From NCBI GenBank assembly GCA_041649575.1, contig JBAZMW010000005.1:81687-113686 (forward strand): a DNA stretch of 32,000 bases, written 5' to 3'. Below, one piece after another: positions 5,641-27,702 of this stretch (its first letter is position 1; each line of letters opens with the position of its first letter). The notes beneath the pieces are model-generated. The model did no database searches and had not been told where the DNA came from. It was given only the letters and a program-made list of their open reading frames with translations. The translations under genes were made by a program, and so were the position numbers. The DNA is from Patescibacteria group bacterium. Lineage in GTDB: Bacteria; Patescibacteriota; Patescibacteriia; 2-01-FULL-39-33.

Positions 5641-5730
5641 GGAATTTTTTAATAACTGTGGATAACTTGGGTAAATTATTTTTTAATATAAAGGCATTTT
5701 TTGATTTTAATTGTTAATTTTTATCAATTT

Positions 5731-9000: not shown

Positions 9001-9292
9001 CGAGATGGAAGTCTGGGCCCTGGAAGGTTATGGCGCGGCTCATACTTTGCAAGAAATTTTAACCATCAAATCCGACGACGTGGTCGGCCGCTCCAAAACC
9101 TATGAAGCCATCATCAAAGGCGAGCCGATAGATAATTTGAATATCCCAGAGAGTTTCAACGTTTTGGTCAGGGAGTTGAAAGGATTGTGCCTGAACGTGG
9201 ATTTGCTCGGTGGCGGCAAAGTACAGCCCGAACCATCGGTGGAAGAAGAAATTGAGGCGGAAGAGATGCCCAAAAAAAGAAAAAATAAATAA
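6020..9292 (+). CDS. rpoB: DNA-directed RNA polymerase subunit beta
   Basis: Rif-cluster region [55 protein letters not shown]. 1090 aa. GAGGA SD 7 nt upstream. Confidence 0.98.
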
Positions 9293-9318
9293 TCGTTTTA
9301 ATTTTTTCAGCAAAGCCT

Positions 9319-13215: not shown

Positions 13216-13234
13216 CGAATCTTAATAAAATTAA

Positions 13235-13260
13235 GCCCCGTTAAAAGCGGGGTTTTTTTT
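13235..13260 (+). terminator. Strong intrinsic terminator of rpoBC
   Basis: CCCCG / CGGGG stem (13236-13240 / 13248-13252), 7-nt loop TTAAAAG, followed by T8 (13253-13260). Confidence 0.8.
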
Positions 13261-13342
13261 ATTTAAATTTAGATAAAAATAATTTAATTAATAAGACTTT
13301 AAGAGACATTAGAGATATTCAGTGATATGTATTACTTATAAT

Positions 13343-13372
13343 TTGACATTAATATACAATTTTTGTTATGCT
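13343..13372 (+). promoter_or_regulatory. Candidate promoter of island module 1, TTGACA-18 nt-TATGCT
   Basis: TTGACA at 13343-13348 and TATGCT at 13367-13372. The -10 overlaps the ORF-track start codon at 13368, which argues for a downstream start. Confidence 0.45.
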
Positions 13373-13409
13373 GAAAGTAGTTGGGGAAAAGTTAAATTTT
13401 TATTATCTA

Positions 13410-13616
13410 ATGTTTAACTCGGAATATAATTTGTTGACAATGGAACAGGTGGCCCAGCGTCTGGGAGTTTCGTTAAAGACGATTTATCGCTGGATAGAAT
13501 CCGGCCAATTACCGGTATCTTTGGTTGGCCGGAGAACTTATCGTATTTTTGAACGTGATTTTGTCAGATTTGTTTATTCCAGACAAATCAACAGACACGT
13601 AAATAAAAAAAGATAA
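13410..13616 (+). CDS. Excisionase-family helix-turn-helix DNA-binding protein (HTH_17, MerR superfamily), paralog 1
   Basis: LTMEQVAQRLGVSLKTIYRWIESGQLPVSLVGRRTYRIFERDFVRFV matches the excisionase-type wHTH pattern (lt..E.A..L.vs..T.YrwI..G.lPa.kiG...yRi...dl..fl). The start is uncertain: ATG 13410 is preferred, with alternatives at 13368 (track) and 13440. Confidence 0.8.
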   Translation: MFNSEYNLLTMEQVAQRLGVSLKTIYRWIESGQLPVSLVGRRTYRIFERDFVRFVYSRQINRHVNKKR

Positions 13617-13627
13617 TTTTTAAAGAA

Positions 13628-14344
13628 ATGTTAAAACGAAGTAAAAAATTTATTTTACTGATGGCAGCGGTCGGCGTGTTGTTTTTTGGCGTTAATTTCT
13701 CCGGTGCCGCCATGAGTTCTGATAATTATCAGATTTGGGCGGACGTTATTTCCGTCGGCGGGATTGAGAAGGCTAGCTCCACTAATTATCGGATGCACAC
13801 CACCTTGGGCGAAGGAGCCAGTGGTCGCTTCTCCTCCAGCGGTGATTCGGGCCGAGCCGGCTTCAGAGAAATGCAAAAGTTTCATTTAACCTTGAGTCTC
13901 GGCGCCAGCGCTTTGGCCCTGGGCGAATTAAAAACAACAGAAACCAAGTCCGCCAGCCATACCTTAACCGTCGAATCAAATTCTGACACGGGCATCAGCG
14001 TCACTTTTTCTGGCAGCACTCTGGCTTGCGCCAGTTGCTCCGGCACCAATAGTGTCAGCGGCATCGGAGGCACCGCTGCCAGCTCGGCGATTGGCACCAG
14101 CCAGTTCGGCTTTAACTCGATTATTGATTTGAGCCAGAGCGCCTCGACTCCGCTGGCGGGCGCGGTGTCTCCTTATAACACTTCCGGCCAATACGCTTTT
14201 AGTAGCGGCTCACAGGTTATTAGCGCCACCACGGCAGTCAATCGAAGCGTTTTTAATATTAATTATATCGCCAACATCAATGGCAATGAAACGGGCGGCA
14301 GCTACAACACAACCATTACCTACACGGCGACTGCCAACTTTTAA
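13628..14344 (+). CDS. Secreted beta-rich surface protein, WxL-like / pilin-like (function unknown)
   Basis: Signal peptide MLKRSKKFILLMAAVGVLFFGVNFSGAA. Paired SS-x-NY motifs (SSDNYQIW, SSTNYRMH). Ser/Thr/Gly/Ala-rich body. C-terminal alternating beta-strand GGSYNTTITYTATANF, resembling the terminal strand of WxL-domain proteins and fimbrial subunits. 11 nt after the HTH gene. Confidence 0.6.
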   Translation: MLKRSKKFILLMAAVGVLFFGVNFSGAAMSSDNYQIWADVISVGGIEKASSTNYRMHTTLGEGASGRFSSSGDSGRAGFREMQKFHLTLSLGASALALGELKTTETKSASHTLTVESNSDTGISVTFSGSTLACASCSGTNSVSGIGGTAASSAIGTSQFGFNSIIDLSQSASTPLAGAVSPYNTSGQYAFSSGSQVISATTAVNRSVFNINYIANINGNETGGSYNTTITYTATANF

Positions 14345-14364
14345 TTAACAAATACTTAATCAAA

Positions 14365-15324
14365 ATGAGGATAAAAAAAATTTATATTTTACCGGCAATT
14401 TTGTTTCTGGCCATTATTTTGCCCAATTTGGCCAAGGCGTTCTCGGTTTCGCCGCCGATAATAGAGACAGATTTGAATCCCGGCCAATCTGGTCTAGAAA
14501 ATCTGGTTTTGTTTAACGAAACCGAACAGGAAGTTTTTTTAAACGGCTACGTAGAGACATTTAGGCCCAGAGGCGAGGCGGGCGAGGTGGAAGTGGTGCC
14601 ACCGGCTGTTTCCCAGCAGGCGGTTGCCTGGCTTAAATTGCCTGAAAATTCTCTAAGCTTGAAGCCGGGAGAAGAAAAAACAGTGCCTCTGATAATTAAC
14701 GTGTCCAAAACCGCCCAGGTTGGCGGCTATTATTTGGCGGTTATGTGGGAAACGTCGCTAGGGCCCAAAAAACAAACCAACCAGGTTCAGGTTTCCGGGC
14801 GGCTGGGCGTTTTGATTTTTTTGCGGGTTGAAGGCGCAGCCAAGGAAGAAATTTCTTTGAAGGATTTTCGGCTGGCAGAAAAAAAACAGGTGTTCGATCG
14901 TTTGCCGGTCGGTTTTGTGAGTCGCCTAGAAAACACCGGCAACGTTCATCTAAAACCAAAAGGATTAATTATCATCAAAAGTATTTTTGGCGTTGACGAG
15001 GTTTTGCCTTTTAACGAGGAGGAAAAAAATATCATGCCCCAGAGCATCAGAAGTTTTAACAATGACTGGGTTAAGGCCGGAGACAGGGCAAAGGCTGGTG
15101 GTTTTTGGTCGGAACTGAAGGCGGAACTAGGGCAATTTGCCTGCGGCCGGTTTTCGGCCCAGTTACAAGCGGAATACGGTCCAGATCATCAAAAAATAAA
15201 TTCGGAAAAAATTTATTTTTGGGTGTTGCCCTGGCGCCTCTTACTTTTAGCCGCAATCGGATTAATAATTTTTTTAGTTGCAACATTAACCTTAAGAAAA
15301 ATTAGCAAAAATAAGAGCGCTTAA
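14365..15324 (+). CDS. Cell-surface protein with signal peptide, Ig-like N-domain and C-terminal membrane anchor (DUF916/DUF3324, CscA-like)
   Basis: Signal peptide ...LPNLAKA/FSVSPPIIETDLNPGQSG. LVLFNETEQEVFLNGYV and KPGEEKTVPLIINVSKTAQVGGYYLAV fit the DUF916-type pattern. C-terminal TM LLLLAAIGLIIFLVATLTL plus basic tail RKISKNKSA. The family assignment is from memory of its pattern, not a search. Confidence 0.55.
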   Translation: MRIKKIYILPAILFLAIILPNLAKAFSVSPPIIETDLNPGQSGLENLVLFNETEQEVFLNGYVETFRPRGEAGEVEVVPPAVSQQAVAWLKLPENSLSLKPGEEKTVPLIINVSKTAQVGGYYLAVMWETSLGPKKQTNQVQVSGRLGVLIFLRVEGAAKEEISLKDFRLAEKKQVFDRLPVGFVSRLENTGNVHLKPKGLIIIKSIFGVDEVLPFNEEEKNIMPQSIRSFNNDWVKAGDRAKAGGFWSELKAELGQFACGRFSAQLQAEYGPDHQKINSEKIYFWVLPWRLLLLAAIGLIIFLVATLTLRKISKNKSA

Positions 15325-18300
15325 TGAAAAAAATATTTTTTTTAATAATCATTTTTATCGTTTTAACCAGCTTGATCTGGGCGGGTGTGGTTTTGGCTGT
15401 TAGCGAGAGTCGCGGCAGTAGTGTCAATATTAATGCCACCATTCCTACTTCCGGCGGCCCGCCGGGCTGTCCGCCGAATTGTCCGCCCAAGCCGGATTCT
15501 TTGGTAATCGACCAGATTTCGGCTGTCGGCTTCTGCACCTCGGCCACGGTTAACTGGCATACCTACCTTAGTCCCAGCGGCAAAGTAGCCAAAAGTACCG
15601 GCGTAGTCAGCTACTGGCCCAGTGGCCATCCAGAAGAAAAAGCTACAGTCAGCTCAACAGTGCCTTCGGAGTTTCACTCAGTGAATTTAAACGATTTAGA
15701 GCCACTGACTGCTTATGATTATGACATCACCGCTACCGCTGCAATCGGAGGAGCGTCTAGTGGCACCCTTAACTTCACTACCACTTGCGGCATCATTAAT
15801 GCTTCGATTGTCGCCGAGCCGGAAGAGCGGGGAGTGAAAATTATCGTCAGCTATCCCGACGACCCGGATATTAGCAAAGTGATTATCAGAAAAAAAATCA
15901 ACAGCGTTCCCCTTGATCAAAGCGATGGCGTTGAATTCTACTACGACGCGCAGCCGCATCCGCCTTTAAGCAGTGAGTTATTTTTTGACCCGCATTTAGC
16001 CGGTGATCCGGGGCAACGCGATTATGACAATTTTTCTAATTTGAATGATAATTACTGTTACGCGGTTTTTATTTGCAACAGCCACAATAACTGCTCCTCC
16101 GGTTCTTACGATTGCGCTCGCAGAGCCATACCAGAAGCCGATGGACTAATGGCTGTGCCCGGAAATGGGCGAATCGAGCTGCTCTGGTCCAATCCCGGCG
16201 ATAATAGCGCCAGCGATTTTATTTTTAGCAAGACGCGACTGATAAAAACCGGAGAGAATTGCTTGGCAGCTGACCCTACAGGAGGCGTGCTTCTAAGAGA
16301 AGGCGAGGCTACCGGCTATTTGGACGGCGCTTTGGAAAACAATCAGACTTATTATTACAAACTATTTGTCAAAAATAGCTATGGCGAATATTCCGACGGC
16401 TTATGCTTAAGAGCCGTGCCTTCGGCTCAGGCTCAAGCCAGGTGTATTAGCGGCGTTCGTTTGCAAAATGGCGACAAAAAAATAGAGGCTACTTGGATAA
16501 ATCCGGAAAATGAAGCCGGGGTTTTTGAGCTGGACAGTGTCCAGTGGCAGAGAGATTCTTCTTGTGTTGTCTCTGCCGGTAGCGGCCAGACCATTTACAG
16601 CGGCCTGGGAAATAGTTTTTCTGATACCAACGTTAATAACGGTTCTCTCTATGCTTATAGCAGTTTTGTAAATTATAATAATGATAGTACCGCCAGCTGC
16701 GGTTGTTTTTACGGCTTACCTGCGACAGAAACCGAGTTGCCAGAAGAAGTTTGTCCGGAGTGTTCGCTTAGTTTACAGCGGCCCAGCTTTAAATTTTATG
16801 TCAACTCCGGAGCCTTAGAACTTTTGGCCAACCAAAACAAACTAGACCTCCTGGCCGGCTACGATTTTTCAATCATCGCCGACCAAAGGGCTTTGCCTAA
16901 GCCGGTATCGCTTATGGTGGCCCAGCTTCAAGGCAAGAATTATTTTTTTTCGCTAAATAATTTACAGCAATCATATCAGGCTTCGCTAGCAACGCCTTTT
17001 AAGGAAGGAAGTTATAGTTTACAAATTACCACGGTTTACCAAGACAAAACCAAATCGGTGGAAACTTGGTATTTGATGATTTGGCCGCGCGGCGTGATCT
17101 TAGACGAAATCGGTCGTCCCATTAAAGGAGCCACTGTCTCGCTTTGGGCCGATAATGGCTCTTTGTCGGCCGGCCTGGGTTTTGCCAACCCCCAATCAAC
17201 CGATACTTTTGGATCATACGGTTTAATGGTGGCCAGTGGCAAGTATTATCTGGAAGTCGAATATAGGGGCTACCAAAAAGAGCGCTTGGCTGTCGAGATT
17301 AAAAACAACATTGTCAATGCCAACTTCAGGCTGATAAAAATAAAAAGTTTTTTGGAACAAGTTGTCGGGTCTTTGTCTAACTTGCTGCCGCCAGCCCGCC
17401 AAGCCAACAATTACATTGCTCCGGGCATAATGCTAATGGCTTTAATTAATACGGCGGCGGCTGTGCCTTTTTGGAATTTTGTTTATTATTTACAATATCT
17501 TTTCACCGAGCCGTTGGCTTGGCTGTTTAGGCGGCGGCGACAGGGCTGGGGAGTGGTCTTTAACTCTATCACTAAAAAACCGGTTGACCTGGCAGTAGTG
17601 CGGCTCTATGACCGTCAAGCGGGGCGGTTGTTGCGTTCACGGGTGACGGATAAGGAGGGAAGATACAGTTTTTTGGTGGGTCAGGGAGTTTATTACTTGG
17701 AGGTGATCAAGGCGGGATTTGTCTTTCCCTCGAACATTTTAAAAGGCGTTAATGAGGACAGGAGTTACACCGATATTTATCATGGTCAAAACATTGAAAT
17801 TAGAGACGACCAAAAAGGAATTATTATCGCCAACATACCTCTGGATCAAGAGGAACTAAAGATTACCGACAAACAGGTAATCAGTCGTGACTTTTGGAGA
17901 AAGGTTAAAGAGAATATTAGCGTTGTCAGCCCGATTTTAGCCATCATTTCTTTCGCAGTGTCGCCCACGATTTTGATTGGTTCTTTTACCATCTTGCATC
18001 TGATTTTGTATCTTTTCTTTAGAAGGCTGGCCAAAACCAGACAGGCCAAGCCCTGGGGCGTCATTTACAATAAAGACAATAAAAAGTCATTGGCTAAGTC
18101 GGTAGTTCGAATTATCGCGCCGGAATACAACCGGATGCTCGAAGCCCAGGTGACCGACAATTATGGGCGTTATGGTTTTTTGGTGGACAATAATATTTAT
18201 TATGTTACGGCCAACAAAGATGGTTACCGGGAGAAAAAGAGCGACGAGATTAATCTGGTTGGCAAAAAATCGAGCGAGGTGGTGGGGCAGGATTTGTCGC

Positions 18301-18527
18301 TGGAGCCGGTGAGCGGCAAGGGCGCAGTTGATTTTGGCGTCGGCTCGGAAACGGAAAAAACCACTGCAACGGAGGTTTTGGCTTCGCCCCAAGCGGCAGG
18401 TGGCCAGGATAATACCGCGCCAGAATCCAAGGAAGAAGCTAAGCAGCCGGACGAAATCGTCGCTGCCGCCGTTTCTGAAGTCAAAAGCGAAAACAAAGAA
18501 GTTATAAAAGAGGATTATCGTGGTTAA
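15324..18527 (+). CDS. Large polytopic surface protein: signal anchor, FN3-like domains, three CarboxypepD_reg-like domains separated by paired TM helices, acidic tail
   Basis: The ATG overlaps the upstream TAA (TAATG at 15322-15326). N-terminal hydrophobic helix. FN3-like signatures (LEPLTAYDYDITA, NQTYYYKLFVKNSYGEYS). Three motifs of type TD..G.Y.F.v..G.YYlev.k.GY at about 17090-17340, 17550-17800 and 18050-18260. Hydrophobic pairs at about 17410-17530 and 17920-18025. Confidence 0.7.
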   Translation: MKKIFFLIIIFIVLTSLIWAGVVLAVSESRGSSVNINATIPTSGGPPGCPPNCPPKPDSLVIDQISAVGFCTSATVNWHTYLSPSGKVAKSTGVVSYWPSGHPEEKATVSSTVPSEFHSVNLNDLEPLTAYDYDITATAAIGGASSGTLNFTTTCGIINASIVAEPEERGVKIIVSYPDDPDISKVIIRKKINSVPLDQSDGVEFYYDAQPHPPLSSELFFDPHLAGDPGQRDYDNFSNLNDNYCYAVFICNSHNNCSSGSYDCARRAIPEADGLMAVPGNGRIELLWSNPGDNSASDFIFSKTRLIKTGENCLAADPTGGVLLREGEATGYLDGALENNQTYYYKLFVKNSYGEYSDGLCLRAVPSAQAQARCISGVRLQNGDKKIEATWINPENEAGVFELDSVQWQRDSSCVVSAGSGQTIYSGLGNSFSDTNVNNGSLYAYSSFVNYNNDSTASCGCFYGLPATETELPEEVCPECSLSLQRPSFKFYVNSGALELLANQNKLDLLAGYDFSIIADQRALPKPVSLMVAQLQGKNYFFSLNNLQQSYQASLATPFKEGSYSLQITTVYQDKTKSVETWYLMIWPRGVILDEIGRPIKGATVSLWADNGSLSAGLGFANPQSTDTFGSYGLMVASGKYYLEVEYRGYQKERLAVEIKNNIVNANFRLIKIKSFLEQVVGSLSNLLPPARQANNYIAPGIMLMALINTAAAVPFWNFVYYLQYLFTEPLAWLFRRRRQGWGVVFNSITKKPVDLAVVRLYDRQAGRLLRSRVTDKEGRYSFLVGQGVYYLEVIKAGFVFPSNILKGVNEDRSYTDIYHGQNIEIRDDQKGIIIANIPLDQEELKITDKQVISRDFWRKVKENISVVSPILAIISFAVSPTILIGSFTILHLILYLFFRRLAKTRQAKPWGVIYNKDNKKSLAKSVVRIIAPEYNRMLEAQVTDNYGRYGFLVDNNIYYVTANKDGYREKKSDEINLVGKKSSEVVGQDLSLEPVSGKGAVDFGVGSETEKTTATEVLASPQAAGGQDNTAPESKEEAKQPDEIVAAAVSEVKSENKEVIKEDYRG

Positions 18528-18530
18528 ATT

Positions 18531-18560
18531 TTGTCAATTGAGAACAATTAAGTATATAAA
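18531..18560 (+). promoter_or_regulatory. Promoter-like box P1 (TTGTCAATTGAGAACA...TATA-rich -10)
   Basis: TTGTCA at 18531-18536, with TATATA/TATAAA 16-18 nt downstream. The first 16 nt are a 15/16 copy of the P2 box at 18644. Confidence 0.35.
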
Positions 18561-18643
18561 TACTACAAATAGTAATTATTCTTTATTTAATTATCTAAAT
18601 TAGGTATTTATATATAAATTTAATACCTGTTGATAACTTTTTA

Positions 18644-18673
18644 TTGACAATTGAGAACATAATCTTTTATAAT
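18644..18673 (+). promoter_or_regulatory. Promoter P2 of island module 2, TTGACA-18 nt-TATAAT
   Basis: TTGACA at 18644-18649 and TATAAT at 18668-18673. It gives a ~100-nt leader before the HTH-2 ATG. Confidence 0.5.
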
Positions 18674-18732
18674 TAACTTAAATACCAACAGCTAAAAATT
18701 AGCATAAAATGAGTAAAAACAGATTGTTTTAT

Positions 18733-18770
18733 AAGCCATAATATTTTTTTATTCTGGCTTTTTATTTTTA
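18733..18770 (+). terminator. Terminator-like hairpin plus U-tract inside the HTH-2 leader (putative attenuator)
   Basis: AAGCCATAAT / ATTCTGGCTT stem (18733-18742 / 18751-18760, one mismatch), 8-nt loop, followed by TTTATTTTT. It lies downstream of P1/P2 and 17 nt upstream of the ATG at 18778. Confidence 0.45.
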
Positions 18771-18777
18771 AATAATA

Positions 18778-18972
18778 ATGAGCAATCGGATTCTGACAAT
18801 TGAAGAAGTGGCCAAAACCATGAAGGTCAGTCTAAAAACTGTTTACCGCTGGATTAGTGCCGGCCAGTTGCCGGCTGCCAAAATTGGCTATAAAACCTAC
18901 CGAGTTTTTGAAGGCGATTTAATTAAATTTTTAAGGCGCCATATGTTTTCTTCGGCGCGCCGTCTAAGATAG
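18778..18972 (+). CDS. Excisionase-family helix-turn-helix DNA-binding protein (HTH_17, MerR superfamily), paralog 2
   Basis: LTIEEVAKTMKVSLKTVYRWISAGQLPAAKIGYKTYRVFEGDLIKFL. About 26/48 identical positions to paralog 1 by hand alignment. Confidence 0.85.
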   Translation: MSNRILTIEEVAKTMKVSLKTVYRWISAGQLPAAKIGYKTYRVFEGDLIKFLRRHMFSSARRLR

Positions 18973-18986
18973 AACAAACAACCGCC

Positions 18987-21900
18987 ATGTCTTTTTTAAC
19001 GATAGAAAAATTTACTCCTAACTACAAAACCAGAATTATTAAAAAGCTAGTTTTAGCTATAGTTTTGCTTGTCGTGCCCCTAGTGGTTTTGGCGGCTTGG
19101 GCTTTTTTGGGAATGATGACCAATTCGGAATTCTTTTTGGCCCAAGCCGCCGTCGGGATTAACAAACAAATAAATTATCAGGGCAAGATTGCCAACTCCA
19201 GCGGCAATAATTTAACCGACGGTAATTACAGTTTTAAATTTGAATTATACGATGCGCCGGATGCCGGCACCTTGCTTTGGAGCGAGGAATGGAAGACCGG
19301 CAGCGGGGCTGGTCCGGTGCAGTTAGTCGATAGTGTTTTTTCGGTGGCTCTGGGCACTTCGACGGCTTTGACCTCCAGTTTGTTTGCCAATGATAATTTA
19401 TATTTACAGGTCTATTTGGATGCTGACAGTAACGGCGTTTATGAAGAAACTTTTTCTCCAAGAAAAAGAATTACCGCCAGTCCCTATGCTTTTAATTCCG
19501 ATACGCTCGATGGTTATGACGCTACTACCACAGCCACAGCCAATAAGTTGTTGGTTTTAGACGGTAGCGCCGGTCTGACTTTAAATAGCGTGACCACCAC
19601 TGGTTCTTTTTATGCCGGCAGTTATGCTTCTTCCACCGGCGGGCTCTATAGCCAAGGCAACGGGCATTTTGGCGGGACTTTGACGGTTGATGGCAATGCC
19701 ACCACCAGCGGCCATTATTATGTTGGAGGCGATCTGACTGTCGACGACAATTTTTATGTCTTGGACAGCTCCAACGCCGCTGCATTATACAGCCTGAATC
19801 CAAGCTTGAATTTTTCTTTTCTGGCTTCCACCACCTTTACCAGTCTAAGCAATCATACTTACAGTTATACTTTCAATTCTTACCTTGATCCCAGCGCTGA
19901 TTCGAGCTATTACCACTATAATTTTTTAAACGCCATAAATATTAACTCCAATAACACCAAAAACATACAAGCATTAGTAGCCGACAGCAACGTGGTTGTT
20001 CATTATGGCACCGGCAATTTGACTTACGGTTATGGCCAATTGAGCACCGTGGAGTTAGCTGGCCTGGGCAACATAACCACGGCTAGCGGCGGCTGGTTTG
20101 AAGTCGCCAGTGGCGTGGATGTTGCGGCCGGTAATATTACCAACGCCTTGGGTGTTATGGGTAAGGTAAATAATGACGTTTATGGTGGCGCTATCACCAG
20201 CGCTCAAGCTATTTCGGGCATTATAAATAATGATGGCGGGACAATAACCGATGCTTATGGCCTAAGAATATACGTGCCCAGCGGTAGTGGGGTCATTAAT
20301 AATGACTATGGCGTTTATATCGAAAATCAAAATCGTGGCGGTAGCTTAAATTATAATATTTATTCCGCTGGTACCACGGGCCTTAATTATTTTGGCGGGC
20401 AGGTGGGCATTGCCACCACTACCCCCTGGTCTGGCTATGAACTAGCCGTTACTGGTGACGAAGTCTTGACGGGTAATCTCAAAGTCCTTGGCTACGGCCA
20501 ATTTAACAATGTCTCCACCACCGATACTCTCTATGTTGGCGGTTATGCCTCTACCACCGGGGGCCTCTATACCCAAAGCAATGGCTGGTTTGGCAGTGCC
20601 GTGACAGTTGGTTCTAAACTGGGCATTGCCACCACCACTCCCTGGGATAGCTACGAGTTAGCCATTACCGGTGACGCTATTTTGACGGGTAATCTCAAAG
20701 TGCTCGGCTACGGCCAATTCAACAATGTCTCCACCACCGATACCCTTTATGTGGGCGGCTATGCTTCCACCACCGGAGGATTATATACCCAGGGCAATGG
20801 GCATTTTGGTGGCAATCTCACAGTTGATAATAACGCCACCACCACCGGCTATCTCACGGTTGGCACTGCTCCCACGGGCGCCACTTTCTCCAGTGGCAAC
20901 CTAAACATCCAGAATAGCTTGGTAGTGGGAGGCGGCATCACTCTGGGCGGAGTCTACCGCGACACTTGGCCCGCCGGCAGCGTTGGCAGCGCCGGTAGTT
21001 TCTGGGCCACCACCTCTAACAGTCTGATAGGTTATCCCGACCTAAGCGGCTTCTATGCCATTGTGATTGGCGGATCAGCCACCACCTCCAACATTTCCAA
21101 CAAACTTAAATTAGAGGTAACCGGCGGCGACTTCGGCGTTGATTTGACCGATGAAACCTTCTTCGTGGACAGTACCAATAACAGTGTTGGCATTGCTACC
21201 ACCACTCCCTGGTCTGGCTATGAGCTGGCCATCACCGGTGATGAGGTTTTGACGGGTAATTTGTATGGTTTGGGATCGGCCACCACTAGTCAAAGTTTAT
21301 ATGTTGGCACTCAAATTAATGTGGCCACCTCTTCTCCCTGGTCTGGTTATGAACTGGCCCTGGCTGGCGACGCCGTTGTTTCTGGTAATTTTTATAACAA
21401 GGGCAACGCCACCACCACCGGCAGTCTTTATGCTAATGAGATTTTTTCTGCCGGCACCCAGCTTTTAGGCAGTGGCGCCGCTAGTGTTGATGCTTTGTCT
21501 GTTATTGGCTTGCACTCTGGTTACAGTGCCAATCTGGCCATTTATGCCAAGGATAGTGATGGCACGGATAACGTCAGTATAGTGGCAATCGGTAAAAACG
21601 CAAACGACCTAGCCAATAGAGAATTGTTTAGTCTGGGTTGGAACGCGGCGGGCACTTATGATATTAATACTTTCGCGGCTGGTAGCGGAGTGGTTCGTGA
21701 TTTACGGATTTATACCGGGAATAACAGCACTCAATTATACTTGGATTCCACTGGCGATGTCAGGATTCCCGACTTGAACTCCACCTCCAGCTATATTGGC
21801 AACCTCACTGTCTATAATAATGCCAATTTTAATTCCATTACCACCACCGACTCCCTCTACGTAGGCGGCTATGCCTCCTCCACAGGCGGCTTATTTACCA

Positions 21901-24900
21901 AAGGCAACGGGCATTTTGGCGGCAATTTAACAGTAGATGGCAATGTGACAACTACCGGCATTATTGACGTTCAACAATATCTCTGGAACTCTCTGGCTGA
22001 TTTGAGTGTTCAAGACGGACTAAGTGTCAGTGGCAACGCCACCACCAGCGGCTATCTTACGGTTGGCACTGCTCCCACGGGCGCCACTTTCTCCAGTGGC
22101 AATTTAAACATCCAAAACAGCTTGGTAGTGGGAGGCGGCATCACTCTGGGCGGAGTCTACCGCGACACTTGGCCAGCCGGCGGCGTTGGCAGCGCCGGCA
22201 GCTTTTGGGCCACCACCTCTAACAGTCTGATAGGTTATCCCGACCTAAGCGGTTTCTACGCTATTGTGATCGGTGGCGCAGCCACCACTTCTAATATTTC
22301 TAACAATCTTAAATTAGAGGTAACCGGCGGCGACTTTGGCGTTGACTTAACCGATGAAACCTTCTTCGTGGACAGCACCAACAACAGTGTAGGCATTGCC
22401 ACCACCACCCCTTGGTCTGGCTACGAACTAGCCATCACCGGTGACGCTGTTTTGACGGGCAATCTCAAAGTGCTTGGCTACGGCCAATTCAACAATGTCT
22501 CCACCACCGATACTCTCTACGTGGGCGGCTATGCCTCCACCACCGGGGGCCTCTATACCCAAAGCAATGGCTGGTTTGGCAGTGCCGTGACAGTTGGTTC
22601 TAAACTGGGCATTGCCACCACTACCCCTTGGGATAGCTATGAACTAGCCATAACCGGTGACGCTGTTTTGACTGGTAATCTCAAAGTACTTGGCTACGGC
22701 CAATTCAACAACGTCTCCACCACTGATACTCTCTACGTGGGCGGCTATGCTTCCACCACCGGAGGATTATATACCCAGGGATTATTAAGAGGTGGCGGAG
22801 GGCTGACTGCAGAAGGCACGATTAGTTTGCCCAGTAATTCAATTACCGACGCCATGGTGGTCAACACTATCACTGCTTCTAATTATTTACCATTAACCGG
22901 TGGCACTTTAACTGGTTTGCTCTCCGGCACCTCGGCCAGTTTCTCCAATGCTGTCACCAGCACCAAGTATATAATGATTGGTTCGGGGACGGTTAACAAT
23001 CTTGATTATGTCGGCGATCTTTATGTGTCTGACGATGTAGAAATTGACGGCTCACTCTGGGTGCCGAACGCGACCACAACTAATTCTTTGTATGCCGGCA
23101 GTAATATTAGTATTGGCATTAATCCGACTCCATATTACGCTCTTTCGGTACTGGGCAGTGCCACTACTTCCGGAGTTTCGGTGGTTGGCACTAATGTATA
23201 TGTTGGCTACGCTAGCGGCAGCGATGACGATTATCTTTATTTTGACGCCGGCAATGAATCGTTGCTTTGGGATAACAGCCCTGGAGAGTTTGTTTTAAGT
23301 GACGATTTGCAAATTCAGGGCAACGCCACCACCACGGGAAAATTAGTGGTGGGCAACGGAACTACGGTGGATAATTCCGGCAGGTATGGTATTTTTTCAA
23401 GCTCTTTGGAAAGCGTGGCATTTCCGGGGGGCAGTTATGGGTTGTATGCTTCCAGCACCAACACCGGCCCGGCTGGTTGGGCGGCAGGTGTTTTTGGAAA
23501 AGGAGCCGGCACCAATAGTGCTGTTGGAGCTTACGGTGTTTTTGGTGAAGCTATTGATTATAATGTTGGTTATAATTACGGCGTTTATGGCAAAGCCGCT
23601 AGCGCGGCTACTACTAATTACGGCGTTTATGGCTTGGCCTCGGGAGCCAGTGATTACGCCGGTTATTTTGAAGGCAATTTAGGGGTTACGGCCACCACCA
23701 CAATTACAAAGGGATTAGTGGTTGATACAAGCAGCTTGTTTGTTAATTATGATACAAACAGGGTTGGCGTTGGCACCACCACGCCCAGCCGGCCGCTTTC
23801 GGTTGTTGGACAGATATTTACCTCGCAAGACGGCAGCGATCCGTCTCTGGTTAGTTTTGGCGGGATGGTGGTGATGGATAATAGTAATGGCCAGGGCTGG
23901 TATATTGCCGGCAGATCGCAGGACACCACTGGCCTAAGAGGCAGTTTAAAATTTGATTCATGCTCTGACTTTGACTGCGGAGCTGGCGGAACTCTCAATA
24001 TTATGGAGTTAACCAGAAGCGGCAGGGTCGGCATTGCCACCACCACGCCGCAGTATCGTTTGCAGGTAGGCAGTATTATTGGCAACACCTTTTTTTCAGT
24101 GGACAGTCTGGGCAATGCCACTACCAGCGCCAACTTGACGGTTAAAAATTTACCCAATCAAACCACCGGCAGCGCCGCCAATGTTTTTGTGGACAGTAAT
24201 GGCCTGTTATTTAAGTCGTCTTCCTCTCTTCGTTATAAAACAGATATAAATTATGGCGGCGTTGATGGTAGTATTTTGTATCAACTGCAGCCAGTATCTT
24301 TCAAAGATAAAAATACCGGAGTTGATTATATTGGTTTTATTGCCGAAGATGTGGCGCTGGTCGAACCAAGACTGGTGTCCTATGACGCCAGCGGCAATCC
24401 TGACGGTTTGCATTATGGCAATTTTTCCGCCCTGATCACCAAAGCCGTACAGGAGTTGTCGGCCAGGGTCGATGCTTTAGAGGTTGATGGTTCTGCCGAC
24501 GCTGCCAGTGGTGGATTGCCAGTGGTGGATTCTCCTGGCAGTAACCTCGATAGCTTGACCGTGCAACAGGCGGCTAATTTCTATGGCACGATTACGGTTT
24601 ATGGGGAGGCGGGTTTTGTTTCCAAGGTCACTTTTGAGAAAGAAGTGGAGTTTAAGGATCATTTAACGGTAGCTGGCGATACTGCCGGCACGGCTATTAT
24701 TACGGCCGGAGCAACCAGCACGGAAATTTTATTTGGCAAGGAATACCAGGAAGCGCCAAAAGTGGTGGCTAATCTACAAATAAAAGGCGCACCGATTTTT
24801 GTCCAGTGGGGTATTGCCGATAAATCAACCAAGGGTTTCAGGATAGTCTTGGCAGAGCCGGTTTTGGCAGATTTGGAATTTGATTGGGTGGCTTTGGCCA

Positions 24901-25127
24901 ATAAAGCTGGCGGCCAGGTGGCCGGAGAGCAAGAGCAGGCAGTGGTTGTCGGTTGTACCAATCCCGAGGCCACTAATTACAATCCGGCTGCCACCCAGGA
25001 TGATGGCTCTTGCATCCTGCAGCCAGCGGAAACTCCCCCGGCCGATCAAGCCGGCAGTCAAGATGCCGCCGCGCCGCCAGTGGAGACGCCGCTTCCCCAG
25101 AGCGATAATCCAGCGCCGACCGGTTAA
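18987..25127 (+). CDS. Giant (2046 aa) N-terminally membrane-anchored fibre protein: tail-fibre-like repeats, Peptidase_S74 intramolecular chaperone domain, lectin-like and Pro-rich C-terminal extension
   Basis: TM LVLAIVLLVVPLVVLAAWAFLG. N-terminal INYQGKIANSSGNNLTDGNYSFKFELYDA...LWSE...VFSVALG module. Many IATTTPWSGYELAITGD and YVGGYASTTGGLYTQGNGHFGG repeats. S74-type segment SSSLRYKTDI...LQPVSFKDK...IGFIAEDVALVEPRLV...LHYGNFSALITKAVQELSARVDAL (about 24216-24485). Confidence 0.85.
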   Translation: MSFLTIEKFTPNYKTRIIKKLVLAIVLLVVPLVVLAAWAFLGMMTNSEFFLAQAAVGINKQINYQGKIANSSGNNLTDGNYSFKFELYDAPDAGTLLWSEEWKTGSGAGPVQLVDSVFSVALGTSTALTSSLFANDNLYLQVYLDADSNGVYEETFSPRKRITASPYAFNSDTLDGYDATTTATANKLLVLDGSAGLTLNSVTTTGSFYAGSYASSTGGLYSQGNGHFGGTLTVDGNATTSGHYYVGGDLTVDDNFYVLDSSNAAALYSLNPSLNFSFLASTTFTSLSNHTYSYTFNSYLDPSADSSYYHYNFLNAININSNNTKNIQALVADSNVVVHYGTGNLTYGYGQLSTVELAGLGNITTASGGWFEVASGVDVAAGNITNALGVMGKVNNDVYGGAITSAQAISGIINNDGGTITDAYGLRIYVPSGSGVINNDYGVYIENQNRGGSLNYNIYSAGTTGLNYFGGQVGIATTTPWSGYELAVTGDEVLTGNLKVLGYGQFNNVSTTDTLYVGGYASTTGGLYTQSNGWFGSAVTVGSKLGIATTTPWDSYELAITGDAILTGNLKVLGYGQFNNVSTTDTLYVGGYASTTGGLYTQGNGHFGGNLTVDNNATTTGYLTVGTAPTGATFSSGNLNIQNSLVVGGGITLGGVYRDTWPAGSVGSAGSFWATTSNSLIGYPDLSGFYAIVIGGSATTSNISNKLKLEVTGGDFGVDLTDETFFVDSTNNSVGIATTTPWSGYELAITGDEVLTGNLYGLGSATTSQSLYVGTQINVATSSPWSGYELALAGDAVVSGNFYNKGNATTTGSLYANEIFSAGTQLLGSGAASVDALSVIGLHSGYSANLAIYAKDSDGTDNVSIVAIGKNANDLANRELFSLGWNAAGTYDINTFAAGSGVVRDLRIYTGNNSTQLYLDSTGDVRIPDLNSTSSYIGNLTVYNNANFNSITTTDSLYVGGYASSTGGLFTKGNGHFGGNLTVDGNVTTTGIIDVQQYLWNSLADLSVQDGLSVSGNATTSGYLTVGTAPTGATFSSGNLNIQNSLVVGGGITLGGVYRDTWPAGGVGSAGSFWATTSNSLIGYPDLSGFYAIVIGGAATTSNISNNLKLEVTGGDFGVDLTDETFFVDSTNNSVGIATTTPWSGYELAITGDAVLTGNLKVLGYGQFNNVSTTDTLYVGGYASTTGGLYTQSNGWFGSAVTVGSKLGIATTTPWDSYELAITGDAVLTGNLKVLGYGQFNNVSTTDTLYVGGYASTTGGLYTQGLLRGGGGLTAEGTISLPSNSITDAMVVNTITASNYLPLTGGTLTGLLSGTSASFSNAVTSTKYIMIGSGTVNNLDYVGDLYVSDDVEIDGSLWVPNATTTNSLYAGSNISIGINPTPYYALSVLGSATTSGVSVVGTNVYVGYASGSDDDYLYFDAGNESLLWDNSPGEFVLSDDLQIQGNATTTGKLVVGNGTTVDNSGRYGIFSSSLESVAFPGGSYGLYASSTNTGPAGWAAGVFGKGAGTNSAVGAYGVFGEAIDYNVGYNYGVYGKAASAATTNYGVYGLASGASDYAGYFEGNLGVTATTTITKGLVVDTSSLFVNYDTNRVGVGTTTPSRPLSVVGQIFTSQDGSDPSLVSFGGMVVMDNSNGQGWYIAGRSQDTTGLRGSLKFDSCSDFDCGAGGTLNIMELTRSGRVGIATTTPQYRLQVGSIIGNTFFSVDSLGNATTSANLTVKNLPNQTTGSAANVFVDSNGLLFKSSSSLRYKTDINYGGVDGSILYQLQPVSFKDKNTGVDYIGFIAEDVALVEPRLVSYDASGNPDGLHYGNFSALITKAVQELSARVDALEVDGSADAASGGLPVVDSPGSNLDSLTVQQAANFYGTITVYGEAGFVSKVTFEKEVEFKDHLTVAGDTAGTAIITAGATSTEILFGKEYQEAPKVVANLQIKGAPIFVQWGIADKSTKGFRIVLAEPVLADLEFDWVALANKAGGQVAGEQEQAVVVGCTNPEATNYNPAATQDDGSCILQPAETPPADQAGSQDAAAPPVETPLPQSDNPAPTG
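20406..20794 (+). repeat. Repeat block X (two tandem 216-bp / 72-aa units), copy A
   Basis: Units start at 20406 and 20622 (GGCATTGCCACCAC...). The block recurs at 22392-22780, offset exactly 1986 bp (in frame), with roughly 90% identity by eye and identical runs of >80 nt. Confidence 0.85.
20832..21262 (+). repeat. Repeat block Y (~430 bp), copy A
   Basis: AACGCCACCACC...GGCTATCT.ACGGTTGGCACTGCTCCCACGGGCGCC... recurs at 22035-22465, offset 1203 bp (in frame). Only 3 aa differences were seen (S/G, S/A, K/N) against many synonymous changes. Confidence 0.85.
22035..22465 (+). repeat. Repeat block Y, copy B (order permuted: here Y precedes X)
   Basis: Direct comparison with 20832-21262. In copy A the order is X-X-Y. 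In copy B it is Y-X-X, with the end of Y merging into the first X unit. Confidence 0.85.
22392..22780 (+). repeat. Repeat block X, copy B
   Basis: Units start at 22392 and 22608. Similarity to copy A ends at ACCCAGGG (20794 / 22780). Confidence 0.85.
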
Positions 25128-25181
25128 TGCCTTTTGCCTCAGGGATCAGAAAGTGCTAAAATTATAATTCGTTCACGAGCT

Positions 25182-27692
25182 ATGTCTTACCGCAAGAAAA
25201 AAAGAAATAAATTAAAATTTCTGGGAAAAAATAGGAAGACCGGTTATTCAAATTTATCCGATTTGGACGACCTTGGTTTTGGCAAAAGTTGGCGAAGCGG
25301 AAATCATTGGCAAGTCGGTTCGGAAACCAAAAAAGGAATTTTTATCATAATTTTATTTTTACTGGCGGCCTTGAGTCTGCTGGGGTTGTTCGATTTATCT
25401 GGTGAATTTGGCCGAGTAATTGTCCATATTTTATCTTTGATTTTTGGCGGTCTGAATTGGTTGTTTCCGGTTTTAGCGATTATTTTGGGCTATTTTTTGC
25501 TGCGGCCGGAAAAGTACCAAGTTAGAATAATTAATTATATCGGCGGGATCCTGCTGGTTTTGGGGGCAACCTCATTGTGGCATTTGTGGTATTTGCGGCA
25601 GGGTTTTTTAAAGCCGCTCGCCTTGGCCAAAGAAGGCTTGGGTGGCGGTTTTGCCGGCTTTGTCCTATCGGCCCCTTTATTGAACTTCATGGGCCTCTGG
25701 GGAGCAGCAGCTGTCTGTTTGGCGATACTATTGGTTGGTATTTTATTAACTTTTGAAACCTCGCTCTACGGGTTAATGTGGCCTATTAGGCTGTTGGGGT
25801 TTCTGGGCTCAAGAATAAAAGAGTTTTATCTGGTGGCCAGAGAGAATTCCGGCCAGAGAATCATTAGCGCCGAGGATGATTATGAGGAGAGCGAGGAGGA
25901 GAAAGATTTGAGCCCTCAGGAAGAAAACGAAGAAGAAAGAGAAGAAAGCACAGGCGAAGAAGAAAATGAACCGCAATTTAAAAGAAAGGAAATAGCGCAA
26001 AAGTCAGAGGAAGAAGCTATTGTCAAACCAAAAAAATTCGGCAGAAAAATTGAATTGCCAATTAGTTTGCTGACTGCCAGGCCGACCAAGCCGACCAGCG
26101 GCGATATCAAAGCCAACCAGGAAATAATCAGAAAAACTTTGGCTAACTTTGGCATCGAAGTGGAAATGGGGGACGTCAACATCGGACCGACGGTGACGCA
26201 ATATACTCTGCGGCCGGCAGACGGGGTCAAGCTCTCGCGAATTATTGTTTTAAACAGCGACCTGGCCCTGGCTTTGGCGGCTCACCCAATTAGGATCGAG
26301 GCGCCCATACCCGGCAAATCATTAGTGGGCATTGAAGTGCCCAACAAGCTGGCGGCTCGTGTGACCATGGGCGAGCTTTTATCCAGCCGCGAGTTTCAGC
26401 AGAGAAGCAATAATCTGTTTATTTCTCTGGGCAAGGATGTTAGCGGCAAAGCTTGTTTTGCCCAGCTAGATCGGATGCCGCATCTTTTGATAGCCGGCGC
26501 CACCGGTTCTGGCAAATCAGTTTGTATTAATTCTATAATTGTCAGCCTGTTATATCAGAATAGTCCCGATGATCTAAAATTTATTTTGGTCGATCCCAAG
26601 AGAGTGGAATTGCCGATTTATAATAATATCCCTTATCTGCTGACCCCGGTGATTACTGATGTCAAAAAAACCATTAACGCGCTTAAATGGACTATTGTCG
26701 AAATGGAAAAGCGTTTTGAATTGTTATCAAGGATGGGTAAAAGAAATATTGCCGCTTATAATCAAGCTGCCACCGATAAGTTGCCTTATATTATTTTTAT
26801 TATTGATGAGCTGGCTGATTTGATGAGTACGGCTGCTAACGACGTGGAGGCGGGAATAGTGCGTTTGGCGCAGATGGCGCGAGCGGTTGGCATTCATTTA
26901 ATTTTGGCGACTCAAAGGCCATCAGTCGAGGTAATTACCGGACTTATCAAGGCCAATATACCGGCTCGGGTTGCTTTTTCGGTGGCCTCGCTAATTGATT
27001 CGCGAACCATTTTAGACAGCTCGGGAGCGGAGAAACTGGTTGGCCGCGGCGACATGCTTTTCCTGGGACCGGAAATTAGCAAGCCCAAAAGAATTCAGGG
27101 CGTGTTTATGTCCGACCAGGAGATAAAGAGCGTGGTGGATTATATCAGGTGTCAGGGAGAGGCCAATTATTTGGAAGAGATAGTCGAGCGGCCGGCCGTC
27201 GGCAGTTTTTCCGGTGGCGCTTTTGCCTCCGACGACGGCGATCCGCTGATGGGTGAAGCCAAAGAAATTATTCGCCAGTCGGGCAAGGCCTCGGCTTCGC
27301 TGTTGCAGCGCAGGCTCAAGCTCGGCTATGCCCGGGCGGCCAGAATCCTGGATTTATTGGAGGAGGAAGGGGTGATCGGGCCGGCCGATGGCGCCAAACC
27401 GCGTGAAGTGTTTTTGGACAAACTGGGCGGGGTTGATGCTTTGAATTTCGCTGCTCGCGAGCATGATTTGACCGGAGAATTGGTCGAGGCGGAAGAATTT
27501 GAAGAAGAAACCGAGGGTGAAAACACGGTTTTCGACAGCGAAGCGGCGGAAGACCTCGAGGCTGCGGAGGAGGAAGAGGAAGAGGAGAAGGAAGAAGAAG
27601 AGGAGGAAGATAAAATTGAACCGAAAGAAAATATGAGACAGAACGGCGCTGATAAAAAAGCGAAGAATTTTGCCGATGACGAATGGACCTAA
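25182..27692 (+). CDS. ftsK: DNA translocase FtsK
   Basis: Four N-terminal TM helices and an acidic linker. Motor domain with Walker A LIAGATGSGKSV and Walker B IIFIIDELADL. Gamma winged-helix ASASLLQRRLKLGYARAARILDLLEEEGVIGP. Start placed at ATG 25182 (MSYRKKKRN), which avoids overlap with the upstream gene; the track start 25134 is less likely. Confidence 0.92.
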   Translation: MSYRKKKRNKLKFLGKNRKTGYSNLSDLDDLGFGKSWRSGNHWQVGSETKKGIFIIILFLLAALSLLGLFDLSGEFGRVIVHILSLIFGGLNWLFPVLAIILGYFLLRPEKYQVRIINYIGGILLVLGATSLWHLWYLRQGFLKPLALAKEGLGGGFAGFVLSAPLLNFMGLWGAAAVCLAILLVGILLTFETSLYGLMWPIRLLGFLGSRIKEFYLVARENSGQRIISAEDDYEESEEEKDLSPQEENEEEREESTGEEENEPQFKRKEIAQKSEEEAIVKPKKFGRKIELPISLLTARPTKPTSGDIKANQEIIRKTLANFGIEVEMGDVNIGPTVTQYTLRPADGVKLSRIIVLNSDLALALAAHPIRIEAPIPGKSLVGIEVPNKLAARVTMGELLSSREFQQRSNNLFISLGKDVSGKACFAQLDRMPHLLIAGATGSGKSVCINSIIVSLLYQNSPDDLKFILVDPKRVELPIYNNIPYLLTPVITDVKKTINALKWTIVEMEKRFELLSRMGKRNIAAYNQAATDKLPYIIFIIDELADLMSTAANDVEAGIVRLAQMARAVGIHLILATQRPSVEVITGLIKANIPARVAFSVASLIDSRTILDSSGAEKLVGRGDMLFLGPEISKPKRIQGVFMSDQEIKSVVDYIRCQGEANYLEEIVERPAVGSFSGGAFASDDGDPLMGEAKEIIRQSGKASASLLQRRLKLGYARAARILDLLEEEGVIGPADGAKPREVFLDKLGGVDALNFAAREHDLTGELVEAEEFEEETEGENTVFDSEAAEDLEAAEEEEEEEKEEEEEEDKIEPKENMRQNGADKKAKNFADDEWT

Positions 27693-27702
27693 TTATTATT
27701 TT

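Follow-up and report, generated by a model that had tools for sequence, protein, structure and literature searches.

A large part of bacterial diversity consists of bacteria of the candidate phyla radiation (CPR), which live mostly attached to host cells by a machinery that is barely known. The Pam pilus has been described in the CPR parasite Ca. Mycosynbacter amalyticus, for which cryo-electron microscopy structures of the PamA and PamB filaments are available (Troman et al., bioRxiv 10.64898/2026.03.03.709456). According to the same preprint, Pam pilins are joined by donor-strand exchange without an usher, PamC and PamD are PapD/FimC-like chaperones with a C-terminal transmembrane (TM) helix, and PamR, which combines an N-terminal strand with two FnIII domains and a TM helix, is the proposed terminator and anchor of the filament; pam operons have a 'tail fibre-like protein' as a central neighbour, and the filaments are reported to be important for host interaction. 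Two further systems are relevant here. WxLIP proteins are composed of DUF916, DUF3324 and a TM helix, and WxL proteins are described as attached to peptidoglycan, not as filament-forming (Hassan et al. 2023, PMC10599100). The mosaic adhesive trimer (MAT) fibres of Bdellovibrio bacteriovorus, defined by Caulton et al. in 2024, recognise prey (PMC10769870); in these fibres, a conserved N-domain of ~130 residues comes directly after the signal peptide, the shaft is an intertwined trimer of beta-helix/prism type, and the S74 chaperone/protease domain has a Ser-Lys dyad (SDxxxK). In this work, we focus on the region between rpoC and ftsK in a window of 32,000 nucleotides (nt), meaning the whole stretch of DNA that was analysed, from a Patescibacteria group bacterium (contig JBAZMW010000005.1), and on the pilus and fibre genes that this region appears to carry.

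In our reading, which we hold to be likely, the region is a vertically inherited attachment locus that combines a minimal Pam-type pilus operon with a MAT-like fibre gene paired with a gene of the HTH_17 family (HTH, helix-turn-helix). The ORF (open reading frame) list of the window contains six ORFs between rpoC and ftsK, all of them on the + strand and all accounted for, separated in their order by 11 nt, 20 nt, a 1-nt overlap, a promoter region and 14 nt before the fibre gene. These spacings, together with the ORF coordinates, the rpoC terminator, both promoters and the rpoBC/ftsK flanks, are as first reported in a preliminary description of the region, which was also right about the gene products being surface structures, either exported or anchored. 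Relatives were collected by scanning species-representative genomes with an alignment of the chaperone family (A2, tighter than a first alignment, A1, which proved too diverse for a locus scan). This yielded 80 loci from many CPR lineages, whose gene content was established by ORF calling and profile searches. The features of the window are as follows.

Upstream flank: rpoB/rpoC; downstream flank: ftsK
13233-13255, + strand: strong intrinsic terminator of rpoC, marking the upstream limit of the locus; 10-bp stem with 5 GC pairs, then a T-run
13343-13372, + strand: sigma70-like promoter of HTH1, TTGACA-18-TATGCT with a TG extension (10/12 match)
13410-13616 (ORF also from 13368), + strand: HTH1, 68-residue HTH_17/excisionase-family protein, predicted to bind DNA (HTH_17 E 1.3e-13)
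13628-18527, + strand: module 1, the putative minimal Pam-type pilus operon
13628-14344, + strand: minimal Pam-type pilin, 238 residues (NF058581, AlphaFold2 (AF2), conservation)
14365-15324, + strand: membrane-anchored PapD/WxLIP-like pilus chaperone of the PamC/D type, 319 residues (AF2, Foldseek, profile)
15324-18527, + strand: putative pilus base or anchor, 1067 residues (Pfam, TM segments, N-strand conservation)
18531-25127, + strand: module 2, HTH2 and fibre
18531-18560, + strand: conserved promoter-like box 1, TTGTCAATTGAGAACA... TATATA, kept in related loci L001, L009, L081, L084 and L086
18628-18637, + strand: upstream element TGTTGATAAC of the HTH2 promoter, one mismatch from TGTGGATAA
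18644-18673, + strand: HTH2 promoter, sigma70-like, a perfect TTGACA-18-TATAAT (12/12 match)
18778-18972, + strand: HTH2, 64-residue HTH_17 protein, predicted to bind DNA (HTH_17 E 6.8e-15)
18987-25127, + strand: fibre resembling MAT fibres, 2046 residues (NF053851, S74 homology, repeats)
20403-22904: DNA repeats of the fibre gene, rearranged internal duplications with 91-92% DNA identity
24156-24482: S74 chaperone/protease domain of the fibre, residues ~1724-1832
24942-25019: GCTNPEATNYNPAATQDDGSC, a Cys-bounded motif of ~25 residues, single copy in the fibre tail, residues ~1986-2011

Pilin, chaperone and putative anchor of the proposed pilus operon

The 238-residue protein harbours a signal peptide (residues 1-28), an N-terminal extension (residues 29-84) and an incomplete Ig-like C-terminal domain (CTD, residues 85-238). 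It has no match in Pfam, and in NCBIfam it passes the model NF058581 (CPR_Pam_pilin_C, 'Pam pilus system pilin subunit') with 90.3 bits for a cutoff of 55. In the AF2 model, the CTD (residues ~82-238) is predicted with a pLDDT (predicted local distance difference test) of 97-98, and the ~55 residues that follow the signal peptide are unstructured (pLDDT 43-53). Chaperone-usher pilins dominate the list of its Foldseek matches, namely CS20, PapA, the pilin domain of PapG, FimA/F/G, CsuA/B, CfaB and Caf1; the list also includes TasA, integrins and a few glycoside hydrolases. Conservation peaks in the first motif of the extension, SSxNYQIWADVISVGG (0.79 versus 0.62 for the CTD), which is also found in otherwise divergent pilins from other CPR lineages, and this conserved disordered extension looks like a putative donor strand. 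Among the 65 homologs of the pilin, those with names belong to Patescibacteria, including Buchananbacteria. Only one pilin gene is present in the operon, and a separate single-domain tip pilin of the PamT type was not found in it. The pilin profile did not detect the solved Pam filament chains among PDB sequences.

The neighbouring 319-residue protein was modelled by AF2 with an alignment of its ~40 homologs, of which the informatively named ones are all from CPR bacteria. The model (pLDDT 90.8) shows a signal helix, two beta-sandwich (Ig-like) domains and a TM helix at residues 290-318, that is, the build of PapD/FimC-like chaperones with a TM helix at the C-terminal end. Among the ORFs between rpoC and ftsK, none codes for an usher, a secretin or an ATPase; the earlier statement that no gene here has a secretion-machinery signature nevertheless needs correction, as this homolog of pilus chaperones is a piece of assembly machinery. 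The top Foldseek matches of the model in the PDB are the WxLIP of E. faecium (9i1y and 9i25, E 2e-11), followed by CfaA, CsuC, DraB, FimC, PapD and EcpB, and RbmA is listed as well. At the sequence level, the profile of the chaperone family matches EfmWxLIP1 (E 1.5e-5), and six out of 40 family members match PF06030 (WxLIP_PGBD); the window protein itself has no match in Pfam. Judged from these profile and fold comparisons, the Pam-type chaperones appear to be homologous to the WxLIP (DUF916) proteins of Gram-positive bacteria, which goes beyond the literature consulted; neither WxL nor DUF916 is mentioned in the Pam preprint (10.64898/2026.03.03.709456).

These matches raise the question of whether the operon codes for a surface complex of the WxL/Csc type, in which the 319-residue protein would hold and display its small partner by strand insertion, without polymerisation. 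In line with such a complex, WxLIP and its complex with WxL are the top fold matches of the chaperone, the EfmWxLIP1 and PF06030 matches are found in its family, there is one small subunit gene only, which lacks the Pam N-terminal domain, and a published proposal has WxLIP inserting a beta-hairpin into WxL. However, the subunit passes a Pam pilin C-domain model that was built on filament-forming pilins, and neither a profile search of PDB sequences with the pilin nor the 50 listed fold matches revealed a link to the WxL domain. Moreover, the single Trp of the pilin is incompatible with the dual Trp-x-Leu motif. Conservation of the pilin is highest in its free N-terminal extension, for which a static complex would have no need, and a dedicated anchor protein with an N-terminal strand is conserved beside it. 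An LPXTG partner is absent. We therefore regard a WxL-type complex as improbable.

The third protein of the operon (1067 residues) is composed of a signal peptide, a strand (SSVNINATIP) with a Pro-rich linker (residues ~31-57), an FN3-like region and a CarboxypepD_reg/TM half. Pfam finds in it three CarboxypepD_reg domains interleaved with TM segments and one fn3/Pur_ac_phosph_N-like stretch, and its hydrophobic segments lie at residues 1-29, ~698-720 and 865-900, in agreement with its first description as a polytopic FN3/CarboxypepD_reg protein. In close relatives, the N-terminal strand reads SLNVNANIP, SVNISAKIE or SVNINATIP. In anchor versions of ~440 residues, a SIQVDLGV strand is combined with an FN3-like domain and, in most cases, with a TM helix at the end. 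In two loci, the anchor is split into two genes joined by a dockerin-cohesin pair (L005, 4004-8731; L007, 3202-8028). The first gene of L005 codes for the strand and a dockerin (48 bits), the second for a cohesin (26.6 bits) and the CarboxypepD_reg/TM half; these domains score above the Pfam cutoffs in L005, and those of L007 were recognised by eye and are unscored. The strand module hence reaches the membrane via three interchangeable tethers, namely its own TM helix, a fusion or a dockerin-cohesin pair, which is good independent genomic evidence for the proposed anchoring step and for the PamR-like role that we infer. The architecture as a whole also agrees with that of PamR, as far as can be judged from the published description. 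Two other loci have seven to ten tandem copies of GCTNPEATNYNPAATQDDGSC near the anchor N-terminus, in place of the FN3-like region (L008, 11375-13906; L009, 10927-13689). The use of cohesin-dockerin pairs outside cellulosomes in CPR bacteria may merit a study of its own.

By analogy with Pam, assembly may be pictured as follows. The pilin would be exported by the Sec pathway, and the groove of its incomplete CTD would first be capped by the membrane-anchored chaperone, then filled by the N-terminal extension of the next pilin through donor-strand exchange. In this way, the filament would grow at the outer surface of the cytoplasmic membrane with neither usher nor ATPase. The groove of the last pilin would be occupied by the SSVNINATIP strand of the anchor, and the polytopic CarboxypepD_reg/TM half would hold the filament to the membrane, a role proposed for PamR. 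If so, there is a much simpler version of the Pam pilus than the one described, with one short pilin, one chaperone and one anchor, and this minimal form may represent a tractable system for the in vitro reconstitution of usher-free donor-strand exchange.

The fibre gene and its HTH_17 partner

The fibre begins with a signal peptide ending in an AQA↓A site (residues 1-54), followed by a conserved N-domain (residues ~55-180), mosaic Gly/Thr-rich repeats, the S74 domain and a tail of ~215 residues with one GCTNPEATNYNPAATQDDGSC motif. An AxA↓A site directly before the N-domain is conserved in orthologs. A cleaved signal peptide is therefore more likely than an N-terminal anchor, and the protein should no longer be called an N-anchored fibre, as it was at first. 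With regard to the S74 domain, the alignment with the fibre of L030, whose S74 scores 59.5 bits, shows that the Ser and Lys of the SSLRYK segment are invariant; the Ser-Lys dyad is present, and the Asp of SDxxxK is replaced by Ser. In tblastn searches, phage tail fibre and minor tail proteins match the fibre over residues 1679-1839 only (E down to 4e-11). The earlier assignment of an S74 domain is thereby backed up. Against PDB sequences, the full-length fibre has no match and the S74 fragment only a weak one to a tail fibre (E 0.16). In L084, the fibre gene is split into two overlapping ORFs. The fibre would be exported via its probably cleaved signal peptide, S74 would guide its trimerisation before releasing itself by self-cleavage, and the fibre would stay at the cell surface through its conserved N-domain.

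Both HTH1 and HTH2, which are 54% identical, match the excisionase family TIGR01764 as well as excisionase families in TIGRFAM and PHROGs, which corroborates their first assignment as small proteins of the HTH_17/excisionase family. Together with an S74 tail-fibre gene, an excisionase gene could suggest the remnant of a prophage. Yet the similarity to phages covers 5-8% of the fibre only, at S74, the fibre starts with a signal peptide, and no integrase or other phage gene was found. Furthermore, the position of the locus is conserved across genomes, and a search of 2.9 million viral contigs retrieved no relatives of the chaperone. A prophage origin was accordingly rejected as hardly conceivable.

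HTH2 is kept in relatives of the window, with orthologs 70-89% identical, a level similar to that of RpoB (79-81%). In all 11 contexts of the HTH2 family, a fibre gene, its putative remnant, or an FN3 protein with a giant protein lies directly downstream. HTH2 is followed by the fibre gene in six of them (the window, L001, L081, L084, L085 and L086), and L086 has no pilus genes or rpoBC nearby. In three others, a short ORF takes the position of the fibre, namely L009 (89 residues), L082 (61 residues) and the P0143 contig (66 residues). The L009 stub matches the fibre N-terminus (E 2e-8), that of L082 resembles it by eye only, and the ORF of the P0143 contig could not be read (stub regions: L009, 14094-14532; L082, 10001-10393). 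These sequences suggest that loci which retained HTH2 have repeatedly lost the fibre. An ABC transporter is encoded a little further downstream in two of these three cases. In the remaining two contexts (L083 and L087), which belong to a tier of the HTH2 family at ~60% identity, an FN3 protein and giant proteins are encoded downstream.

The promoter of HTH2 is conserved as well. Orthologous promoters carry TGTGGATAA, the complement of the DnaA-box consensus, and their overall consensus is TGT(T/G)GATAAY, 2-8 nt, TTGACAAT..., TATAAT. Nine copies of this composite element occur in the 1.24 Mb formed by the window and the loci, and all nine are located at promoters of the HTH2 family. Taking gene order and promoter sequences together, HTH2 is a conserved partner of the fibre gene with a promoter signature of its own. 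Fibre expression would be set by the co-transcribed 64-residue protein at this conserved promoter, and the pair offers a handle on how CPR cells may control the expression of an adhesin. The only other copy of the upstream element in the window, where 0.08 is expected by chance, is a perfect DnaA-box complement, TGTGGATAAC, at 5657-5666, within the 380-nt intergenic region between a Mur ligase gene and rpoB.

HTH1 is a different case. It is absent from all syntenic relatives with a readable rpoC-pilin gap (~100-140 nt), a count that leaves out L001 and L008, in which the gap is masked by N runs, and by this comparison HTH1 is a paralog specific to this genome. The upstream element of the HTH2 promoter was not found upstream of HTH1, and there is hence no evidence of a shared regulator site for the two modules. 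More broadly, an HTH_17 gene is missing from almost all of the 80 related loci. The logic of a regulator followed by a surface structure, as put forward in the preliminary description, is supported for module 2, given its 11 HTH2 contexts, whereas two parallel HTH_17-led modules are not supported as a design principle. In L006, a 70-residue XRE-type HTH ORF (9041-9253) lies between rpoC and pilin, the position of HTH1 in the window, which points to independent recruitment of small regulators ahead of the pilus operon. With respect to described regulators, both HTHs give sub-threshold scores on NF033787 (BldC, 24-29 bits) and NF047737 (MAD1, 28-40 bits), far below the cutoffs. RwpL of L. plantarum, considered as an HTH-only regulator of WxL genes, was dropped as a parallel, since it is a 19.7-kDa MarR-type protein encoded elsewhere.

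Gene order and inheritance across CPR lineages

In the related loci, the core genes are co-oriented in 243 out of 243 instances, the pilin gene adjoins that of the chaperone in 51 of the 62 eligible loci, and an anchor-like gene is found within 3 kb downstream in 39 of 57. Chaperone-pilin-anchor-fibre (CPAF) is the commonest gene order. The chaperone family is present in Buchananbacteria, Falkowbacteria, Uhrbacteria, Nomurabacteria, Lloydbacteria, Terrybacteria, Kaiserbacteria, WWE3, Gracilibacteria and Saccharibacteria, a far wider range of CPR lineages than the two classes on which the preprint puts its emphasis, and all informatively named homologs of the pilin and chaperone stem from Patescibacteria lineages. 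Some homolog records, and many of those behind L001-L080, are titled Gammaproteobacteria, Vicinamibacterales, Burkholderiales or Nanoarchaeia; gene content and the names of the protein sources point to Patescibacteria, and these records thus look like mislabelled or mis-binned CPR metagenome-assembled genomes. In saccharibacterial loci, larger pilins (132-166 bits on the Pam model) stand beside chaperones of the same family, which links the family with bona fide Pam operons.

Buchananbacteria and Falkowbacteria are the labels that the closest relatives carry. The pilin gene directly follows rpoB-rpoC in L001, L006, L008, L009, L081, L084, L085 and the P0143 contig, ftsK comes after the fibre gene in L081 and L085, and L081 goes on with recA and efp, like the window. 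Identities to the window proteins are 79-81% for RpoB, 72-73% for RpoC, 46-55% for the pilin, 42-51% for the chaperone and 37-53% for the anchor. In L084, a gene of the 23S_rRNA_IVP family lies between pilin and chaperone (5316-5660) and a GIY-YIG gene after the anchor (9176-9478).

The region had been presented as an accessory island with two modules, each led by an HTH_17 regulator, which would make it an undescribed and horizontally acquired set of genes. It is true that, in the window, two HTH_17 genes with their own promoters head the two gene groups, and that Pfam leaves most of the structural proteins unannotated. However, the rpoBC-pilin-chaperone-anchor-HTH-fibre-ftsK block recurs in relatives as diverged as 72-73% in RpoC, and it is therefore not an island. 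The region contains no tRNA, Rfam element or integrase, its GC (guanine-cytosine) content is not anomalous and its composition is native, HTH1 is missing from every relative with a readable gap, and the parts match the Pam system and resemble MAT fibres. The chances of such an island are consequently very slim. From gene order and protein identities, the pilus-fibre locus is vertically inherited in a Buchananbacteria-like CPR clade. The claim that no system of this composition has been described likewise fails by the refuting condition set along with it, an assignment to a known pilus in structure searches: the described counterpart of module 1 is the Pam system, and the fibre most resembles the MAT/S74 family.

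Another question is whether pilus and fibre belong together. They could be independent adhesins that happen to be neighbours, with HTH2 as a general or DnaA-linked regulator and not a switch specific to the fibre. The HTH-fibre pair of L086, which occurs without pilus genes, the persistence of HTH2 in loci with a lost or reduced fibre (L009, L082 and the P0143 contig), and the resemblance of the HTH2 upstream element to a DnaA box, with a copy upstream of rpoB, all speak for independence. On the other hand, the co-oriented chaperone-pilin-anchor-fibre order recurs across many CPR lineages. In addition, the 32 matches to the fibre N-domain in the sampled flanks all share locus and orientation with pilus modules, 29 of them downstream of the module, mostly adjacent, and three directly upstream; in Uhrbacteria-type loci, the protein with this domain is ~5 kb from the pilus module. 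Independence thus seems the less likely option, albeit one to be taken seriously.

At the opposite end, pilus and fibre could form one composite organ, with the Pam chaperones and WxLIP belonging to one ancient family of strand-donating chaperones. The fibre N-domain would then dock on the Pam-type filament or on its anchor, and the short pilus would act as a stalk for an exchangeable trimeric adhesin, whose expression the HTH_17 partner would set; in Bdellovibrio, the docking partner of the MAT N-domain has not been identified (PMC10769870). We consider this rather unlikely. If true, an ancient family of membrane-anchored strand-donating chaperones would exist in single-membrane bacteria, and WxL clusters would also use strand complementation.

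The reading that we favour, a minimal Pam-type pilus operon with an HTH_17-paired, MAT-like fibre, has several points to its disadvantage. Pilus and fibre are known here from gene sequences and, for pilin and chaperone, from structure models, and the comparison with PamC, PamD and PamR was made through their published descriptions. The pilin fits none of the named Pam subunits: with only ~55 residues before the CTD, it lacks the nine-strand N-terminal domain of PamA and PamB and is therefore a shorter kind of Pam pilin, and it does not reach the cutoff of the PamT equivalog in NCBIfam (81 for 240 bits). Its Foldseek matches are weak, with a best E of 8e-3 and hence none that attains 1e-3. The chaperone has no match in NCBIfam, and in structure it is closest to WxLIP, for whose partner no polymerisation is known. 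The 1067-residue protein has an ambiguous predicted membrane topology. For the fibre, residues 50-128 score 33.3 bits on NF053851 (Bdello_MAT_N), below the cutoff of 60, and S74 is sub-threshold in Pfam (E 0.075 for the whole protein; 17.5 bits for a fragment, with a cutoff of 22). Finally, a giant protein with the N-terminus of the fibre is present within 10 kb downstream in only 18 of the 39 loci with enough flank.

Host attachment, as proposed in the preliminary description, is a plausible role for the locus by analogy, given that Pam filaments matter for host interaction and that MAT fibres recognise prey.

Concerning the downstream boundary, ftsK is listed from a TTG at 25134, and an ATG at 25182 (MSYRKKKRNK) is a more plausible-looking start. 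No terminator is found between the fibre stop and this position (25127-25182), and ftsK may therefore be partly read through from the fibre transcript. Between ftsK and recA, the window codes for a 232-residue protein with HTH_25 (RodZ-like) and Glucodextran_B domains (27670-28368), which has the same position in L081.

Comparison with known systems

The two small HTH proteins of the locus are similar to the minimal HTHs of the BldC and excisionase type in their size (~60-70 residues) and in consisting of an HTH_17/MerR-like predicted DNA-binding domain only, but their scores are far below the cutoffs and they have no recombinase partner here.

With chaperone-usher pili (Pap, Fim, Csu and CFA/I), the locus shares the folds of chaperone and pilin and, in the proposed mechanism, donor-strand complementation and exchange via an N-terminal extension, in which respect these pili would be closer to the short pilin than PamA and PamB are. 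In contrast, both the outer membrane and the usher are missing here, the chaperone is held by a membrane anchor instead of being soluble, and a membrane-embedded base protein takes the place of termination held by an usher.

With regard to the WxL/WxLIP (Csc) system of Enterococcus, Lactobacillus and Listeria (PMC10599100; 9i1y, 9i25), the 319-residue protein is alike in architecture and fold, with detectable similarity in sequence, and its gene likewise stands beside that of a small secreted beta-rich partner. This partner, however, is not a WxL-domain protein and has no match to the WxL chain of 9i25, and no LPXTG protein is encoded. The link between Pam and WxLIP could nevertheless change the view of how WxL virulence clusters work.

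The fibre resembles the MAT fibres of Bdellovibrio in its probable signal peptide directly followed by a conserved beta-rich N-domain, its long mosaic shaft of repeats and its S74 chaperone/protease domain, and both occur in bacteria living on other bacteria. It differs from them by an N-domain at 33 bits for a cutoff of 60, by SSxxxK versus SDxxxK, by the residues that follow S74 (~215), and by a gene that is paired with an HTH_17 gene and located beside a pilus operon.

As for the Pam system, the locus has a single pilin versus four or five (PamA/B/E/T) and a single chaperone versus two. Its pilin carries a conserved extension of ~55 residues in place of the nine-strand N-domain, and its anchor is fused to a polytopic CarboxypepD_reg module (cohesin-dockerin in relatives), where Pam has one TM helix only. 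The locus is flanked by rpoBC/ftsK, versus ATP synthase/CorB/MFS for Pam, and the closest relatives fall outside the two classes highlighted in the preprint. What the locus adds to the literature consulted is the short pilin, the homology of Pam chaperones to WxLIP, the interchangeable tethers of the anchor, and the HTH2-fibre pair with its promoter signature, all as judged from comparisons of genes and models. At the same time, both are restricted to CPR, export all their parts by Sec, possess a pilin with a truncated Ig-like CTD and do without usher or ATPase (NF058579/NF058581), and both comprise a TM-anchored PapD/FimC-like chaperone, a base protein (putative here) with strand, FnIII-like region and tether, and a tail-fibre-like gene nearby.

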